64,000 bases of DNA from a virus: the IMG/VR virus record IMGVR_UViG_3300010400_000004, positions 10,534 to 74,533 of that record; one strand, 5' to 3'. Every line of letters starts with the position of its first letter. Position 1 is the first letter of the stretch. The notes beneath the pieces are model-generated. The model worked only from the letters and a program-made list of their open reading frames with translations. It searched no databases and was not told where the DNA came from. Positions 11,793 to 44,262 of the stretch are shown piece by piece. Position numbers and translations under genes: made by a program.

Positions 11793-12395
11793 ATGGCAAA
11801 AGAAATGATCGATCCAGCGGCACTCGGAGATACCACCGCTCCAGAACAACCGGCTACCTCCGACCTTCCGGATGAAGTATTGCAGATACCCGCCGTCCAG
11901 GGATTGATAGCCGGTTCGCCGGTTGCAGTCTCCGCGAAAGTCAAAGACGCGGAGAAGACCGAGCAGGGCAAATTGATTATCGACAACGCTAAGGAGTTGC
12001 AGAACAACGGCATCGGTTTCTACCGATCGCTGAGTGGGGATACCGCCGTGTTATTCAACACACTGCATATCAACGGTGAAGACATCAAAAAGGCGGACAA
12101 AGCAGGGAAACTTTTACAGATAGCGCCTCCGTTCGATCAAGTGAACGCTGAAATTTCAAAAATGGGTCCGGATGCTCATCCGTCTTTGAATTCCTCAGGG
12201 GTGCCTGGGGGTCCAGCTTCGCCTGGGGCAGCTTTGCCGCCTCAAAGTGCCCAAATGCCTATGCCAGCGAACGACGGTGCGTCTGCGGACCGTCTGAGGG
12301 CGCAAATCGCGAACATTAAGCCTCAGGCTCCGACTGCCGGTGCCCGCCCGGGGGCTGGTCGTTTACTCAACTCGATTTTGAAGCCCGTTCTTTGA
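11793..12395 (+). CDS. Hypothetical protein, last gene of the virion module
   Basis: 200-aa ORF; converges with the - strand block. Confidence 0.6.
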   Translation: MAKEMIDPAALGDTTAPEQPATSDLPDEVLQIPAVQGLIAGSPVAVSAKVKDAEKTEQGKLIIDNAKELQNNGIGFYRSLSGDTAVLFNTLHINGEDIKKADKAGKLLQIAPPFDQVNAEISKMGPDAHPSLNSSGVPGGPASPGAALPPQSAQMPMPANDGASADRLRAQIANIKPQAPTAGARPGAGRLLNSILKPVL

Positions 12396-12561
12396 AAACG
12401 GTATAACCTTCTTCTCGAAGCCTTCGAACAAGAATTAACCCTCGATCGATTTCGTCACCTGCTTTATCCGCTCCGAGGGTTCCGACTTCCCGGGCAATAA
12501 GCCCCAGGCTGTAAGCAACCACATTCGGCATGCTGTGATCTAGCGGTTTTTCAGTTTTCAT
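12367..12561 (-). CDS. Hypothetical protein
   Basis: ATG immediately follows the putative ncRNA; sequence looks protein-like. Confidence 0.45.
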   Translation of the reverse strand: MKTEKPLDHSMPNVVAYSLGLIAREVGTLGADKAGDEIDRGLILVRRLREEGYTVFKERASKSS

Positions 12562-12565
12562 TTTA

Positions 12566-12739
12566 GTTGGGCATTGTCCGCGATCCCCGATTACGCGGGT
12601 GGTCTCTCGCAGTCTTGAGTCGGTAGCGAGCCGAAACAGAATCCGCAATCTCCCACGGTTTCAGCACCTCGCACCTAGCTCCAGACCAGCTACGGTCCTA
12701 CTCCAGCACGGGCGACGGGGACAGCGGACAACAACCAAC
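12566..12739 (-). ncRNA. Putative ~175-nt structured ncRNA or leader RNA
   Basis: Terminal pairings GTTGG/CCAAC, TTGTCCGC/GCGGACAA and TCCCCG/CGGGGA, plus internal hairpins. Starts 6 nt after a -10 box. Confidence 0.65.
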
Positions 12740-12745
12740 ATCGAT

Positions 12746-12773
12746 ACAATACACCTTCCCAGGAAGGTGTCAA
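12746..12773 (-). promoter_or_regulatory. Sigma70-like promoter TTGACA-N16-TATTGT with a palindromic spacer
   Basis: ACACCTTCC-ca-GGAAGGTGT (12751-12770) spans the spacer. Confidence 0.7.
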
Positions 12774-12775
12774 AT

Positions 12776-13003
12776 TTATTTTATGTTCCCCATGCCTTCA
12801 GGAAATTTCCCAGCTCGAACATGCTCCAGCCACCAGACACGGCGTTCGGTAACTTCTTTCACCGCCCTTTTATAGAGTATCGGGATCATTCTATTCATTA
12901 AATCCGGAAGACACGCATGGCGATATTCCGCGATGAATTTACACTGCCTAAAGTGGCGGAGTCGGAAGACGGCGAGCTTCAGGTCGATCCATGCTTTATT
13001 CAT
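12776..13003 (-). CDS. Hypothetical protein
   Basis: ORF coupled to the upstream gene. Confidence 0.4.
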   Translation of the reverse strand: MNKAWIDLKLAVFRLRHFRQCKFIAEYRHACLPDLMNRMIPILYKRAVKEVTERRVWWLEHVRAGKFPEGMGNIK

Positions 13004-13358
13004 ATCTCGGGGCTTCGATCCAGGGAGTGAGAAAAACTCCATTCGAAGAATCTTCTTTGCTTTTGCATCTTAACGGAAAGCCTTCCGACACTCTTCGGGG
13101 ATCGTTTTCGATAGCGTGAATCTGAGGAAATTCGGGACGTTTAAACAGAACAGGAGAAACCCGATCGAATCCTTGATTACGTAGGAATGAAAGTTCGTAA
13201 GGTGCGTTCAGCCATTCCGGATTGATGACCCAAATACCACCGACTTTTTTATAGGATGCAGCAGTTTTCCAGCATCGATCGAAAGTAATCGCCGGGGGCA
13301 GCACTACCGTCCCGGCGACGGCGGCTGCGAGGGTTTTGAAAAAGCTTCGGCGGTTCAT
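12996..13358 (-). CDS. Hypothetical protein with twin-arginine (Tat-like) signal
   Basis: MNRRSFFKTLAAAVAGTVVLP. Confidence 0.6.
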   Translation of the reverse strand: MNRRSFFKTLAAAVAGTVVLPPAITFDRCWKTAASYKKVGGIWVINPEWLNAPYELSFLRNQGFDRVSPVLFKRPEFPQIHAIENDPRRVSEGFPLRCKSKEDSSNGVFLTPWIEAPRYE

Positions 13359-13756
13359 TTTTTGAGATAGTCGATTGCACGTTCGAGCACTTCGGGATTT
13401 TCCTTAATGTGACCGATATACATATTGCAAGGAGCGCACAGAATTCCACGCACTTCATTTGTTTTGTGATTGTGATCTACATGCGGACGATTCATAATTT
13501 TTTGACAGATCACGCACCGGCTATTTTGCTCACGAAGCATTGCCTCGTATTGTGTAGCAGACAATCCATATCTCGCTTTTAGGTGTTTGAATTTTCTTTT
13601 TACTTTGGTGCGGGGTAGCTGGTCGTATTCTCTCTGTTTAGTATTTTCACAGGTAAAACAATGTCTATTACGATACAACCCTCCCGGAACTTTTTTGTTC
13701 TTCTGTAAACGAAACTCGTGTATCGTTTTTTCTTTCTTGCAAGTTTTACACGTCAT
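13355..13756 (-). CDS. Endonuclease VII-family homing endonuclease
   Basis: CKTC...YGLS...CVIC...HVDHNH...VRGILCAPCN. Confidence 0.9.
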   Translation of the reverse strand: MTCKTCKKEKTIHEFRLQKNKKVPGGLYRNRHCFTCENTKQREYDQLPRTKVKRKFKHLKARYGLSATQYEAMLREQNSRCVICQKIMNRPHVDHNHKTNEVRGILCAPCNMYIGHIKENPEVLERAIDYLKK

Positions 13757-15338: not shown

Positions 15339-15824
15339 TTATTTCATTCTACCAAGTCGATTATTCGCCCACAACCAAATCCACACGGCATCAACTCCGT
15401 TATCGTCGAGGTTTTCTGAACCTGGCATCGGTTGAGTTTTCCACAAAGCTTTGGCCATAGCTTCTTTCGTTGCTGCCCCGTTTCCGGTTGCAAATTTCTT
15501 CAAAGTTCCGACCGGGATGCAATCGAAATGAGAACCGAGGGCACAGAGCCAAACTGCACCTCGCAAACTCGACCAGAGTTGAACCTGATACGTGCTGCTG
15601 GCAAACTCGACATCTTCTATTGCGACAATATCGAACGCGCCGAGTGCGGTTAAATTCTCGCATAGCCGTTCAATCCTAGGGTCTTTTGTCCGTCGCTGCC
15701 GATCGTGGCCCCAGGCAGTGATTTCTTTCTTCGTGGCAAGTTCCCAGGTGCCGCAAAAGAACTGTTCGTTCTTATTGTAAGCGTAGCCAGTATGAGTGCC
15801 TAAATCCAGGCCCAAAATATTCAA
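15339..15824 (-). CDS. RuvC-like Holliday junction resolvase
   Basis: ILGLDLGTHTG...IEDV...TLKKFATGNGAATKE...DDNGVDA. Confidence 0.85.
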   Translation of the reverse strand: MNILGLDLGTHTGYAYNKNEQFFCGTWELATKKEITAWGHDRQRRTKDPRIERLCENLTALGAFDIVAIEDVEFASSTYQVQLWSSLRGAVWLCALGSHFDCIPVGTLKKFATGNGAATKEAMAKALWKTQPMPGSENLDDNGVDAVWIWLWANNRLGRMK

Positions 15825-16423
15825 AGCAGTTGATCCTTCTTCGATTGTAGCACCACGCGCAATTTTTTCAAAGCGCCTGAGTGCAGGTTTTGTATATGCT
15901 GTCGAGAGTATCCGAGCCGATCTCCGATTTCACCGAATGAAAAACCGGATTCATATCGGAGTATCAAAATCGCCCTCTCTCTATCATTCAACGATCCGAA
16001 TATAGCAGGCCGCAGGCCGTTGAATAACTCTTTTGTTTCAAGCCGCGAAAAGTCCGGTTCACAATAGGTATCGACGAGAGGTTTGTCTTTTTCCGGGTAA
16101 TCTGCCGAGGTGGTATAAGAATTTTTCACTACAAGGCGGCGTTTGAATTCCCGATTGATCTGACCGCGCAAATATTGCTTCGTAAAGGCGAAAAATCGGA
16201 TTCCGTTCGATTTGCGCTTGCGAAAATTCTTCGCGGCCTGCCTGAGAGCAATCCAGCACATCGACACGAGTTCTCCCTCAGGAAACTCACCCCGCGAACA
16301 GTGCCGGGAATAGTCGAGTGCTTCCGCCATATTGACGAGTGCGAGTTTGTCGAGGGCACGCTTGTTGCCCTTTTTGATTAGCTCGAATTCTTCGGATGTA
16401 TCTATTGCTTTGGGAAAATCCAT
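15821..16423 (-). CDS. Sigma-70 family RNA polymerase sigma factor (regions 2 and 4)
   Basis: ALRQAAKNF...IRFFAFTKQYLRG (region 2); LNDRERAILILRY...EIGDRLGYSRQHI...ALKKLR (region 4). Confidence 0.85.
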   Translation of the reverse strand: MDFPKAIDTSEEFELIKKGNKRALDKLALVNMAEALDYSRHCSRGEFPEGELVSMCWIALRQAAKNFRKRKSNGIRFFAFTKQYLRGQINREFKRRLVVKNSYTTSADYPEKDKPLVDTYCEPDFSRLETKELFNGLRPAIFGSLNDRERAILILRYESGFSFGEIGDRLGYSRQHIQNLHSGALKKLRVVLQSKKDQLL

Positions 16424-23294: not shown

Positions 23295-25127
23295 TTATCC
23301 AACGAATGTCAAATGTTTCTTTGCCCGGGTCAGCGCCACGTAGTAAATATTCGCTTCCTCGTCTGACCGCCCAGGCTTGAAAGTCGCCTGGAGAAGAAAT
23401 ACTCGACTCCACTCTAAACCCTTGGCCTTGTGGACACTAGAGAGAACCACAGCGGGTTTCGCGGTCTTGCTGTCGGAGTCTTGGAAAAGGCTGTAAATTC
23501 TTGACTCGATGTCACTTACACTCGAAGCGTCTTGCGCCACTGCCGCGAGGGTTTCAACAGTATCGTTGACCTGGGCGATCTTCGCTTCCGCATTCTTGCC
23601 GACTGCCATCCGTTTGCGTTGCTTTGTCGCCCAAGAGTCGAGCTTACGGAAAAAGTCTGGAACCGATTTCGCCCTGAGTTTCCTCACCGTGTTAACTAGT
23701 TGGGCACCAATGTCCCGGCCTTCAATTCTGGCGGAAACGCCGCGTTTCAGCAAATTCAAGCAGGTGGACATTAAAGGCGCGTTTAAACGGCTGAGGATCG
23801 CGTCCCCGATAACCGCGTGTTCGACGGCGGAGACAACCTCGTCAACGATACCCTCCGGAGCACTCGGGGCAGCGTTGTAATCGGGCACGATTTCAGCCGC
23901 CAGAGCCACTACAGCCTTCGGGCAACGGTAAGTGGTGGTAAGAGACAACTTCGTTGCCGAAAGCCTCTCCTGCATCATCCTCATTCCATCCTGAGCCGCT
24001 CCACGAAACGCATAGATCGCTTGGCGGTCGTCGCCCACTACGCAAATCCGGCCTCCAGGCAAGCACGCCCGAATCGCCATTTCGAGCTGAGGGACATTCA
24101 TGTCCTGGCATTCGTCAACCACGACCAGCGGGAACCTGGGGAAAACCCAATTCATCGCGACTGGCAACCAGACCATATCGTTGAAGCTAATTCGGCCTTC
24201 AACATCTCGCTCTTTGGCCAGTTCCAGGGCGGTGAATGCGACCGAGGCGAGGCGAGCCACTGTCCAGCCGCCGTCTTCAGGGGCTTCACTGGCGGAGAAA
24301 ATACCCTTGTCGTTCGCCAAGTCGATCAGAAGATCAATTGTGGGCGAAATCAGGGTATTCTTGGCGAAAGCCACAAGACGTTCAACGCAACCGGAGACTT
24401 CCTCCGGAATTCCAGGGCAGGCGGCTTCGATCCGGGCCGATTCAACCGATGAGTCGGGCTTTACACCCGGCCAAACGGTTTGAATGTAAGAAAACCCAAG
24501 AGAGTGTTCGGTCCGGATTTCAACTCGCTTGTCCTTGATTTTGCGCTCCGCTTCGATCTGGTTTTTCTTGTTGAAAACGAGATACAAGGCGGAGGACTCC
24601 AGGGCATGCTTGAAAGCTTCTTCGATGGTGGTCGTTTTGCCAGTCCCGGCACGAGCACCGACAACCGCATTGCCAGTGCCCGACGCAAACCAAGCGAAAA
24701 TCGCCTTCTGCTCATCGGACCAAATTCGGGAGGGAGTAGAGGGAATCGAACCCTCTACGCCTGCGCTCAAACTATCAGTGCCAGTCGAGGCACCCGAGAC
24801 GCTTGACGACTGCACAGGCACGGAACCATCCACTCCCACTGAACCGACAACCGATACGTTGGAGTTGTTTGTCTCCTGTGCGATAGAGTGAGTAGTCGCA
24901 CTCGTATCGGTTGTCGAGCCAGTAGTATCTAACGGTTTCTCCCATAGCAGCACCGACCAGTCGCCGGTTTGCTTGTCCTTGTCGCAACTAACGCCCTCTG
25001 CTTTCAGAGCCGCTTTATTCGACCTCCAGGCAACCCAAAAAGCCGGTGTAGGATTCGCCTTGCGGAGATTGCCAACCCTCGTGAGTTTCGGCTCGCTCCA
25101 TTTCAGATTCAGTCCGTCGATCAACAT
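23295..25127 (-). CDS. UvrD/Rep-like SF1 helicase with extra N-terminal domain
   Basis: ARAGTGKT, VDECQD, VGDDRQAIY, TYRCP, HKAKGLEW, YVALTRAK. Confidence 0.92.
   Translation of the reverse strand: MLIDGLNLKWSEPKLTRVGNLRKANPTPAFWVAWRSNKAALKAEGVSCDKDKQTGDWSVLLWEKPLDTTGSTTDTSATTHSIAQETNNSNVSVVGSVGVDGSVPVQSSSVSGASTGTDSLSAGVEGSIPSTPSRIWSDEQKAIFAWFASGTGNAVVGARAGTGKTTTIEEAFKHALESSALYLVFNKKNQIEAERKIKDKRVEIRTEHSLGFSYIQTVWPGVKPDSSVESARIEAACPGIPEEVSGCVERLVAFAKNTLISPTIDLLIDLANDKGIFSASEAPEDGGWTVARLASVAFTALELAKERDVEGRISFNDMVWLPVAMNWVFPRFPLVVVDECQDMNVPQLEMAIRACLPGGRICVVGDDRQAIYAFRGAAQDGMRMMQERLSATKLSLTTTYRCPKAVVALAAEIVPDYNAAPSAPEGIVDEVVSAVEHAVIGDAILSRLNAPLMSTCLNLLKRGVSARIEGRDIGAQLVNTVRKLRAKSVPDFFRKLDSWATKQRKRMAVGKNAEAKIAQVNDTVETLAAVAQDASSVSDIESRIYSLFQDSDSKTAKPAVVLSSVHKAKGLEWSRVFLLQATFKPGRSDEEANIYYVALTRAKKHLTFVG
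24731..24837 (-). ncRNA. tRNA-like (TLD-like) element embedded in frame in the helicase gene
   Basis: Acceptor stem GGGAGTG/TACTCCC; T-arm GAGGG-TTCGATT-CCCTC; long central helix GCCTGTGC/GCGCAGGC. Confidence 0.65.
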
Positions 25128-25133
25128 GGCGCT

Positions 25134-25161
25134 AATATACACGAGACTGAATCACGTTCAA
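25134..25161 (-). promoter_or_regulatory. Promoter TTGAAC-N16-TATATT before the helicase ATG
   Basis: Direct motif match; ATG follows 6 nt after the -10 box. Confidence 0.55.
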
Positions 25162-31852: not shown

Positions 31853-32098
31853 TTAGAGCGACAAGAACGCTTCGATTTGTTGCTTGGTGAAACCTTCACG
31901 AAGAGCCTTCGCTCGAAAAACGTCAGTCTTGGAAACCGGCTTACCGAAAGCTCCGAAGGAAGGCCAGGAGTTTTGAGAAATGCGGGACAATGCTTCGGCG
32001 CGGGACATTCCGCCGACAAAATCCACAAAAGCATCTTGAGTCGCTTGCTCATCGATACCGCCGAATGTTCCGATTACTGGTTTGAAGTTTTTGCTCAT
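31853..32098 (-). CDS. Hypothetical protein
   Basis: First gene after a promoter and hairpin leader. Confidence 0.55.
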   Translation of the reverse strand: MSKNFKPVIGTFGGIDEQATQDAFVDFVGGMSRAEALSRISQNSWPSFGAFGKPVSKTDVFRAKALREGFTKQQIEAFLSL

Positions 32099-32139
32099 GT
32101 TTTTTGTTTCAGTCCGCCTTTATTGGCTGACCTACCCAC

Positions 32140-32167
32140 ACAATAGTCCATCCCGCGCCATTGTCAA
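32140..32167 (-). promoter_or_regulatory. Promoter TTGACA-N16-TATTGT
   Basis: Direct motif match, followed by the 20-bp repeated leader hairpin (32112-32131). Confidence 0.7.
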
Positions 32168-32248
32168 CAGGTGAGGAAGAAAATAATTGCGATTATCCGC
32201 AAGTTCCTGATACGCATACACCTGCAAGTGTATTCGATTCTATCAGAC

Positions 32249-37049: not shown

Positions 37050-39511
37050 AATGAACGGCGGGTTGAATTTTCACCTGGGAAGCACGAACAGTGGATAACC
37101 ATTCGAGTTGCTCTATCGGACGATGAGTCACCGTGGAGCAAGTCGATCCATCCGGCCACTGCCAGATAACCCGGCACAAAGTTTTTTCACGCAGAAAACG
37201 GATAATCTGAAAATCGAGCTTCACGTTTCGGCGGAATATTGCGGGACTAGGAGGTCTTCCGATTGGCTTTTTCATTTCGATGATTTATTTCGGTTTCGAT
37301 TGCGTTGGCCTGGGCGATAAGCGGAACGACGACGGTGATGATGAAATCTTGTCGCAAGCTCTCGATCGCGAAGGTGGGAATGATCCGGTTAACTCCCCGG
37401 ATTCGTTTCTCCGCCCGGAGCTTCGCCCGCTTCAGGCGGTCGATCGGCAGCCGAGACATCCGACTGGCGAGTTTCGTTTCGAGTGTCTTCGGCGTCTGTG
37501 TCGAGGTGTAATAAGTCCACCGTGCCCGATGGCAGGTCCGACGAAAAGTTCCCGTGATCCGTTTCTGACCCAGTAATATTTCCGTCGCTGTTTCCCGTGG
37601 CATGTGATCCATGTCCAAGTTTTGTTTTATCATAGCAATATCCGCGTGTTTCAAGTTCAGGTGTTCGTGGTAGAATTCTTCCGCACCGGCATACGAAGTT
37701 GTTCGGGTCTGCCTGCAACTTCAGCCAGAGCGGTTCTCCGATTTTCAGCGGTTCGAGTCCATTGACGTGTCGTTTTGGGCGAGGCATATTTGAATTGCTT
37801 TCCAGCTCTCAGGAGAAATTCAATTTCTGATTCGCTGGGGGCTTCGTTGATTAGTTGTCTGAGGCCAATGTTACGCATTGACGATGACTCCTTCGTAAGC
37901 GTTGACGATCGAGGCCGCTTCGTCCGGAGTGAGGCTGTCACCAGCTCCGAATTTTTTCGCCGTTCCGAAGTCGATAGTCAGCGAACCGACAATACGCATG
38001 ACTTTGTAAGATTCCTGAACGTTGCTGAGTTTCTTGGTGAAGTCGTCGGGATTCGACCGAAGCAATGTGATTTTGATTTGTTTGTTTCTCATGTTTGGTT
38101 TTGTTTTTGTTCGTTTACAAATTTCCTATACCGGGCGCGATAAGAAAAATCATCTGCGCCGTTCTCGACATACCGATGACAATTCGGACATCGACAATAC
38201 CGGGCTACACCAAAAAGTTTCATCTCTGTTGCGTGGCTCTCACCTCTACCGATTAGTTGCAGGCACACGCTGCATTCGAGTGCCTGGATTTGTAACTGTT
38301 GAAAGGTGAGTCGCACAACTTCAATATTTGGTTGTGTCGTCGGGCATCGTGCAAATCCCCACCGATATGATAACCGAGACCACGATTATCCAGAACAGGC
38401 GGAAGATTTCGAGTTCGATATTCATATTCAAAATGTCCAGTCGTCGCCGGAAATTGTCGGCATGCGATTGGCCGAGGTAACGTTGGCGGAAAAGTTCCAC
38501 CAGTCTTCGATGGCACGTTTGGCGACGGCAAGCCTGGTGAAATATCGCTGGCTATCGGGATTGAGGGGGTCGTAATTTGGATTTTCGAAAAATTCCCGGA
38601 ACTGTTTGATGGCGGCGATTTTATTCTCAGGCCGAATGTTCCCCAAGGTGGTGACGAACGGTGCCATTGCCTCGAAAAACCTCGCAACCTCCGGATCGAG
38701 GGTCGGTGTTCGGATTACGTCCAGTTCGAAATTCTGAAGGCCGAGCTTTGCGGCGACGATGGCGTGGACTTCGGCGAGTGTGAGTGTGATTTTCATTGGC
38801 GAGCCTTTCGAACACTGACGAGGTTTTCCGCCGTGGCCACTCCAGGCGTGCCGAAACGACCGCCCATATTCAGGGCGACGTAGCCGGGTGAAATGATTCG
38901 TGCAGTGCCCGTCTTCGGCTTGTATTCGACTCCAGAGCGACCGATGCCAGCGGGGACGAGGATTGTGACACGATCGCCTGGGCGAATCGTCTGAAGCAAT
39001 TCTGCGGCGTTTCTCACTTGGCACCTCCGAAAGAAAACCGAGTTGCGCTTCCGTCGATGCCCGTCCAATTCTGTTGTCGGCACCAGACGAAAAGGTCTCC
39101 CACGTTATCGAAAACCGGACTGACCCGACTGTCATAGTTCAGGTGGGAATTGCCCACGAACAGAAAAGACCCGAGCTTGCGAGTGTTCGCGCAGCGGCAT
39201 TGAACCGCTACCTGGGCGGTTGTGCCTGGGCGATGAACCTTGCGGGGCGTTTGATCGATGATGAAGCCATTCACTTGGCACCCCCGTTGACGCCGCAGGC
39301 GGCGAGAAAAATGTTGCGGTTGAATCGCGGATTGGCGTCCGCGAAGGTCGCCGCCAGGGAAAACGCAGTCATGCGGATTGCGTTCTGTCCCTCAGGGGAG
39401 GACTGATTCGAGTTGAATGCTGTTTTGATCGCTGCCGCCACTGCTACGAAGTCTTTTATGCTCATAATTTTTTTTTGTTTTGTTGTCCGCCTTTATTGGC
39501 TGACTGGTGTT

Positions 39512-39539
39512 AATGTATCAGAGTCCGAGGGATTGTCAA
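39512..39539 (-). promoter_or_regulatory. Promoter TTGACA-N16-TACATT
   Basis: Followed by the second copy of the 20-bp leader hairpin (39485-39504). Confidence 0.65.
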
Positions 39540-39817
39540 ATTTTACCAACAGGTCTGAATCTCGTAAATCTCATCGGCGCAGCTTTGGGCGGCATTCAGA
39601 TTCGTGCAGACCGCCGTGTAGAATTCGCCGCTACCCTCTTGATCGTGAGATTCAAGCTTGTTGGCGTCGATTATCATACGTCCCGCCCCATTACTGTCGT
39701 TCCACGAGGCAACCCAGGAGGCGATTGCCGAAACCGCTTTTTCGTATCCGATTACTGTTTCGAGGACTCTGTTTTTCATTTTCTTTCATCCGGTCTTTGT
39801 TCTTCGACCGTGGATAC

Positions 39818-42493: not shown

Positions 42494-42582
42494 AGGAGAA
42501 CCGTATCAAAAACAACCAGATCGCACAACTTCTGTTTTGCGGAAAGAAAAGTGTCCTAAACAGGACAGTTTTCGGAACCATT

Positions 42583-42741
42583 GGTAACTTCTACCGGGGA
42601 CCTCGGTAGGTAGGGACAATCGCTCCTACATATATTCTTCCCAATTTAATCTAAAAGTAGTAGTAGTAGTAGTAAGGGCGCGGGTCGTCCCCAAAAAGGA
42701 CCGATTCTCCCTACCTACCAATATCCCCAGGCAAAGTTACC
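42583..42741. repeat. 45-bp imperfect inverted repeat around an (AGT)6-containing spacer at the strand switch; candidate origin/control region
   Basis: Arms 42583-42627 and 42697-42741 align without gaps at 36/45 positions. Confidence 0.75.
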
Positions 42742-43203
42742 CCGGGTCACTTTTCTGCCCTCAACCGGGCAGGACTAACTTTTCATGGCGACTTTTCGTC
42801 GCGCCGGTCACTTTCAAGTGTGAAGAGAGACGAGGACGAACTTTTCGATCGGGCCAGCCCCGACATCAAACGTTTAAACCGCCAAGCTCGAAAAGAGCGG
42901 CGACTCAAGAAAAGGGAACAATGGAAACGAGACCGTTTGTTGAAGAATACCTCTATTTTGCAGGCGGAAGAACCATAGCAGGCAAAGAAGGCCGACCGAG
43001 TGACGATCGCGAATACGCCCGACAAGTTGCTGACGTAATCGAATTTGATCTGCCCTGGCCGAACACTGACGGCAATCGACCGCGTGAGTTGCTCGATCAG
43101 GACAGATTGAAAGCCGGTCAGAAGTGGGCGAAGACCGGAGACGTGGTGAATTGTTTTCCACCAGCGAGGGAGATCGTCCACTACCCGATTGCAGAGTTGA
43201 ATC

Positions 43204-43893: not shown

Positions 43894-44262
43894 TATTACT
43901 GATGATTCAGTAATTTCTGTCAAGACAGAAATCACAGAATAGAAAGCGAAAATCTCCCGAGCGGGACGGATTAGCCCTTGAATGCAGCTAAATTTTACAG
44001 TGAGTGATTGCTCACTGTCGGTAAAGCGACACTTTGGACAGCAATCTGAGGTTTAATGGGAGTCCGGCCACCTCGAACCGCCGACCGGCGATCCGATCCG
44101 CGATCCGACCAGGGCGTTATCGGTCACGTTACGGTAAAGTTGGGGTGGGTGCCTTGGGGGTTTGGAGCTGGAACAACTTCGCTTAGAGCCAGTTACGCGA
44201 ATTAAGAAAAAGACATCGAGAAAAAGTTGTGTAACGTTACTGAATCTGGTATGATTTAAAAA

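Follow-up and report, generated by a model that had tools for sequence, protein, structure and literature searches.

In Escherichia coli, 5′-terminal stem-loops of the kind found in the ompA 5′ UTR stabilize the mRNA, the helix lying within about 0–2 nt of the 5′ end and the start codon being left accessible. In the early mRNAs of phages, RNase III sites such as the R sites of T7 and that of the lambda N leader are local hairpins with long imperfect duplexes of about two helical turns, located in the leader or in an intercistronic region of the early transcript, and RNase III accepts helices in the size range of 24 positions. Phage morons are autonomous units lodged between conserved genes; each consists of one small accessory gene and the promoter that drives it, and is absent at the same place in close relatives. 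The 6S RNA (Rfam RF00013), ~175–180 nt in length, folds into a largely double-stranded rod that has a central bubble, a paired apical stem, and a closing stem joining both ends; as a stable, discrete species it associates with the RNA polymerase holoenzyme and serves as template for pRNA. The present study concerns a locus of an uncultured, soil-type phage that a preliminary description had presented as a regulated noncoding RNA of ~175 nt, with its own promoter and with a size and closed ends recalling 6S RNA. Our analysis suggests instead that this RNA is probably the folded 5′ leader of the mRNA of a small conserved gene, ORF64, and that its helix would stabilize the message or take part in its processing. 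Most likely, this is an ordinary architecture and not a new regulatory RNA.

The phage genome, a complete IMG/VR genome of 74.5 kb with direct terminal repeats, was analyzed through a stretch of 64,000 nt (the window, whose numbering is used throughout). A simple ORF map divides the genome into two arms: a plus-strand arm, presumably late/structural, that ends at 12395, and a minus-strand arm that runs from about 44800 down to the locus of ORF64 and its leader. The leader locus therefore lies at the junction of the convergent late (plus) and early (minus) arms. The promoter, the helix, the motifs inside it, and ORF64 are all on the minus strand, and their positions are collected in Table 1.

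Table 1. Positions of the elements of the ORF64 leader locus, of its neighboring genes, and of the related promoters (window numbering)
Feature	Position	Strand	Remarks
Last gene of the convergent plus-strand (presumed late) arm, 200 aa	11793–12395	+	End is the far edge of the putative 380-nt insert, 12396–12775
ORF64, 64 aa	12367–12561	−	ATG at 12561; ATG at 12531 is an alternative start
3′ arm of the closing helix	12566–12589	−	Ends 4 nt before the ORF64 start codon
Leader interior, 126 nt	12590–12715	−	No Rfam family; predicted branching without statistical support
5′ arm of the closing helix	12716–12739	−	Starts at the predicted first transcribed base
Sigma-70-type promoter	12746–12773	−	−35 TTGACA 12773–12768; 16-nt spacer; −10 TATTGT 12751–12746
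Perfect 9 + 9 palindrome, 2-nt center, ACACCTTCC-NN-GGAAGGTGT	12751–12770		Fills the promoter spacer
ORF88	12776–13042	−	Stop codon 2 nt before the −35 hexamer
Further promoter of the class	32094–32194	−	20-mer hairpin at the predicted start, then an A-rich tract, then ATG 32098
Further promoter of the class	39466–39566	−	20-mer hairpin at the predicted start, then an A-rich tract, then ATG 39465

The TTGACA-N16-TATTGT promoter that had been reported is present on the minus strand (12773–12746) and is probably real. It scores 10/12 against a consensus that assumes sigma-70 rules, which may not be those of the host, and its position predicts a transcription start near 12739. When the whole genome was scanned for TTGAC[AT]-N16-18-TAnnnT, four matches were obtained, three of which, at 12773, 32167, and 39539, have the TTGACA-N16 arrangement followed by TAnnnT; all three are on the minus strand and all lie ahead of minus-strand ORFs. 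The −10 hexamer at site 32167 is identical to that of the promoter at 12773 (TATTGT), and site 39539 has AAATTTGACA in common with it. Moreover, sites 32167 and 39539 carry an identical 20-nt hairpin, GTCAGCC-AATAAA-GGCGGAC, which starts 7–8 nt past the −10 hexamer, and in the ORF64 leader the long helix starts 7 nt past the −10 (which ends at 12746, the helix starting at 12739). The design thus recurs three times, which supports the view that this is a genuine promoter class with a shared feature, namely a transcript predicted to begin with a stem. The transcripts of the other two promoters of the class would likewise start with a hairpin, as in the ompA-type stabilizers.

The spacer of the ORF64 promoter holds a palindrome that the preliminary description had called operator-like, and its 9-bp arms are indeed perfect; it begins 5 nt after the ORF88 stop codon. 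Perfect 9-bp palindromes with a loop of ≤8 nt occur four times genome-wide versus 1.65 in shuffles, so the palindrome is not rare per se and only its position is notable. No second copy within ≤3 mismatches was found in the window, and no extra half-sites were found. On the plus strand it scores as terminator-like, with an 8-bp stem and the tail CAAATTTATT, the U run starting only after CAAA; on the minus strand the tail, ATTGTATC, has four T in eight positions, below the T rule of the scan. It is a candidate repressor operator and/or terminator hairpin, and as such it could be the site of a repressor or could halt late plus-strand transcripts that run antisense into the early arm. The additional site copies or the cognate DNA-binding protein that would mark an operator were not found, and ORF64 has no recognizable DNA-binding domain. 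A second perfect 9 + 9 palindrome with a 2-nt center, ATTTCTGTC-AA-GACAGAAAT, is located at 43913–43932, near the divergent region between the arms, and is unrelated in sequence to that at 12751–12770.

The pairing of the transcript start with sequence ~170 nt downstream, through three stacked helices, was likewise borne out. As minus-strand RNA, 12739–12716 pairs with 12589–12566 at 22 of 24 positions (19 Watson–Crick and three G–U pairs), in stacked segments of 5, 10, and 7 bp, and this closing helix is present in both the minimum free energy (MFE) and the centroid structures. The 186-nt stretch 12555–12740 folds at −78 kcal/mol (z −3.67 versus dinucleotide shuffles), an energy that the 178-nt leader reaches by itself. 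The 126-nt interior alone has a z of +0.17, 109 of 200 shuffles being equally or more stable; the only structure beyond chance is therefore the 24-nt inverted repeat that forms the closing helix. The inner TAGCT/AGCTA hairpin with its TGGTCT, and the downstream AGACCA, were all found where they had been described, and by a rough estimate several 6-nt complementarities such as TGGTCT/AGACCA are expected by chance in 178 nt. When the genome was scanned in 180-nt windows with correction for GC content, the best-registered leader window ranked 59th of 2479 on the minus strand, so that the locus is among the top few percent of that strand and is not its top outlier. The strongest fold of the genome (z −5.6) is a very large hairpin at 42494–42790 on the minus strand, with many pairs per side, located in a 290-nt intergenic gap and containing both a (CTA)n microsatellite and an AT-rich stretch; it has no Rfam match and might serve as an origin of replication or in packaging.

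An inverted repeat of this kind might be a feature of the DNA without any role in RNA, whether as MITE-like ends, as the scar of an insertion, or by chance, and we consider this rather unlikely. Consistent with such an origin, the folding scores are similar on the two strands (z −3.67 for the minus strand versus −3.41 for the plus strand of the 178 nt), the interior is without structure, and the cassette is inserted relative to the two closest relatives described below. Chance itself would supply some such repeats: ungapped inverted repeats of at least 19/24 with a loop of 3–200 nt occur at three places in the 74.5-kb genome versus a mean of 0.58 in shuffled genomes. Against a purely DNA-level feature, the arms fit precisely into the interval that separates the predicted start site from the start codon, and all three of the transition-type mismatches are G–U pairs on the transcribed strand. 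Because of these three pairs the minus-strand RNA is more stable than the plus strand (−78 versus −67.9 kcal/mol), and a G–U bias that favors the transcribed strand may be weak evidence for selection at the RNA level. Furthermore, of the signs of a MITE-like element (inverted repeats, a target-site duplication, and copies), the loci searched offer only the repeats: there is no duplication at the arm ends (TA versus AT), and no second copy was found in the phage, in 93 related loci, or, by 17-mer, in IMG/VR. The third long inverted repeat of the genome (24834–24927; 19/24 Watson–Crick and 22/24 with G–U pairs, minus strand) lies inside a 615-aa ORF, 23295–25142, within a run of strongly folding windows at 24658–24838.

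What lies beyond the helix argues for the leader of an mRNA. Conserved ORF64 follows right after the helix, and no hairpin-plus-U-tract terminator is found between the helix and the ORF64 ATG, the sole minus-strand match of the terminator scan inside the leader being a weak 6-bp stem at 12658–12643. The supposed noncoding RNA is therefore best read as the 5′ leader of ORF64. Of the original proposal, the promoter and the pairing of the transcript start with downstream sequence are retained; a free-standing RNA is not, given the lack of a terminator and a conserved ORF that starts 4 nt after the helix. In a 241-nt fold, CUAAAAUGAAAACUGAAAAACC is unpaired, as are the ORF64 start codon and the A-rich codons after it, in the MFE and the centroid structures alike. 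The start context, caactaaaATG, fits the starts of this phage, which in a sample of 36 larger genes mostly have A-rich sequence upstream and no Shine–Dalgarno motif, which suggests that translation in the host begins independently of such a motif.

In the model that we favor, 12396–12775 would form a compact transcription unit of its own where the late and early arms meet, in which a host-type early promoter (12773–12746) would start a monocistronic mRNA near 12739. The first 24 nt of this mRNA would pair with the 24 nt ending just before the ORF64 start codon and would enclose 126 nt, and the start codon and the A-rich codons that follow would stay single-stranded, so that translation would not be blocked. 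Located at the extreme 5′ end, the helix might shield the message from RNases that depend on the 5′ end; with 22 of its 24 positions paired, it might also be a site at which RNase III trims the leader. By analogy with the stabilizer stems and with the RNase III sites of phages, the helix should protect or process the message without blocking its translation. The predicted position of the helix and the predicted accessibility of the start codon would be those of the ompA-type stabilizers. Unlike them, the helix is long-range, closing over the whole interior and ending only 4 nt before the AUG. As in the T7 R sites and the lambda N leader, the duplex is long and imperfect, spans about two helical turns, and would be placed in the leader of an early transcript, but those sites are local hairpins. 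The helix described here is a putative site.

A further reading would have a 34-codon upstream ORF translated, from a GTG at 12667 to a stop at 12565–12563, with its ribosomes opening the 3′ arm and being coupled to ORF64. The stop lies only 1 nt before the ATG at 12561, in the arrangement UAA-A-AUG, which suits such coupling, but the GTG is buried in the interior, without support, and the genes of this phage use A-rich starts; we find this barely credible. Conservation of an overlapping short ORF, and not of the pairing, had been named beforehand as the outcome that would speak against a noncoding RNA. Our findings correspond to it in spirit, in that a conserved ORF adjoins the RNA without overlapping it. 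None of the overlapping ORFs is conserved, the plus-strand 100-aa ORF having no homologue that we could find, and no homologous leader was found by which conservation of the pairing could be judged.

The conservation of ORF64 itself is clear. Six metagenomic homologues share 62–83% identity with it, and a profile search gathered 280 clusters at E ≤ 1e-3. Conservation is concentrated in the core, MPNxVAYxLG...GDEIDRGLILVRRL; the N termini vary (alignment A1), and the homologues do not share the in-frame extension that would carry the N terminus of ORF64 into the leader. The protein has no Pfam, PHROG, PDB, or NCBIfam match; its AF2 model consists of two helices (pLDDT 73, moderate confidence) and has no Foldseek match, and the Atlas rows were uninformative. 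Members of the family have domains of ~55 aa with invariant G, I-D, G-L, and G positions and the motif GDxIDRGL (proteins P0001–P0154; alignments A1 and A3). They are found in phages and in Proteobacteria genome contigs that are possibly prophages, and are sometimes fused to longer proteins. Of 27 family loci, 20 or more leave no room for a leader, the gene following immediately on the upstream ORF. One homologue with 75% identity (L062, 545–770) has an upstream region of its own of ~215 nt, unrelated in sequence and very strongly folded (z −7.0), which ends in a hairpin 10 nt before the ATG; the stem of this hairpin, GUCCGC/GCGGAC, consists of the hexamers at the core of the closing helix in the window, a likeness that may be coincidence.

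The origin of the unit can be approached through related phages. With the neighboring metallophosphoesterase gene as probe, 58 related phage loci were fetched, of which the closest relatives are L004 (85% identity) and L003 (78%). In both, the homologue of the plus-strand 200-aa gene runs up to or into the last small gene of the minus strand, with neither a leader nor ORF64 between the two. In the phage studied here, the stops of ORF88 and of the plus-strand gene are separated by the 380 nt of the promoter–leader–ORF64 unit (12396–12775). ORF88 shares its C-terminal motif, W(L/I)xxVxxGxFPxG, with the small genes that come last in L003 and L004 (pairwise E values of 3e-5 and 2e-4). Ancestrally, the minus-strand arm thus probably ended with ORF88, and 12396–12775 would be an inserted promoter–leader–gene unit, apparently of the moron type, placed where the two arms converge. 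It has in common with morons an autonomous promoter, a single small accessory gene, and absence from the same junction in the closest relatives. It differs from them in that no clear terminator was found after ORF64 and in its unusually long leader, 178 nt versus 35–40 nt at the other two promoters of the class. Nearby, an endonuclease VII (HNH-type) gene (13355–13756) stands between the metallophosphoesterase gene and a small TAT-signal gene, and it was not found at the same junction in L003 and L004; the junction is therefore variable, a hot spot for variable cargo.

The leader was sought more widely. Searches of the region by blastn and nhmmer against the loci of 59 relatives returned only the end of the neighboring gene in L004, and blastn against phage GenBank returned no match to the region. 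A 17-mer scan of IMG/VR gave four matches, each of which extends for just 20–24 nt and is therefore a chance match. With a single-sequence covariance model run over 813 kb of related loci (93 loci), only the leader itself was recovered. Thus, no homologue of the leader, in sequence or in structure, was found in the relatives or in 34 ORF64-family loci, and the regions upstream of the ORF64 homologues L061–L065 cannot be aligned with it. Because no homologous leader was found in the collections searched, there is no covariation to draw on.

The likeness to 6S RNA, in contrast to the promoter and the pairing, did not survive closer comparison. The length and a closing stem that joins both ends are shared, but the ORF64 leader has no terminator and is followed directly by a coding gene, and its interior is multibranched in the MFE structure and unstructured beyond chance, unlike a rod with a central bubble. 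Rfam searches with E values up to 10 found no 6S match in a 601-nt region or, for the 6S families, in the whole phage, whereas control genomes scored; nor is there a counterpart in the relatives. Rfam searches of the window and of the loci of ORF64 homologues yielded nothing relevant. In the window and the 601-nt region, the only matches were subthreshold and attributable to chance (sR53, 15.9 bits; ZFAT-AS1, 12.8 bits), and no curated family of riboswitches or cis-regulatory leaders was matched. A retron noncoding RNA (msr-msd), which is bounded by inverted repeats and adjoins a reverse transcriptase gene, was also considered and rejected: no RVT_1 match was found anywhere in the phage, and the downstream gene encodes 64 aa. 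The idea of a target in trans was dropped as well, the phage offering elsewhere just two 13-mer complementarities, judged unconvincing.

It is quite improbable that processing of the transcript, perhaps by RNase III in the closing helix, frees a stable closed-end RNA of ~174 nt that acts alone, for instance as a protein decoy or as a 6S-like binder of RNA polymerase. Its size, closed ends, and own promoter would suit such a product, and a helix of 24 positions with 22 paired is within the size range of RNase III; yet the RNA matches neither 6S nor any other Rfam family, its interior is no more stable than its shuffled versions, it lacks a terminator, the searches turned up no conserved counterpart, and a sigma-70 region 2 went undetected in this phage. 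A more specific version, which we regard as very improbable, has the 174-nt segment excised from the ORF64 mRNA and building up as a stable phage RNA, closed at its ends and functional in its own right; such an RNA could sequester a host protein or RNA polymerase, with ORF64 as its partner protein. A likeness to 6S RNA had been called notable in a phage that encodes a sigma factor. A 200-aa ORF on the minus strand (15821–16423) does contain a sigma-70 region-4-like HTH (30 bits, above the Pfam cut-off), but region 2 was not detected anywhere in the phage, and the label of sigma factor is therefore unconfirmed.

If the reading of the RNA as the 5′ leader of ORF64 is correct, its value is mainly practical. 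A false lead for a phage 6S RNA would be removed, and the annotation would gain a small conserved gene of a kind that automatic gene callers might overlook. In addition, a promoter class whose transcripts would each start with a 5′ stem would be documented in an uncultured 74.5-kb soil-type phage. The ORF64 family, uncharacterized and without a Pfam model yet widespread in phages and prophages, with its 280 clusters and its GDxIDRGL motif, is a modest target in itself.
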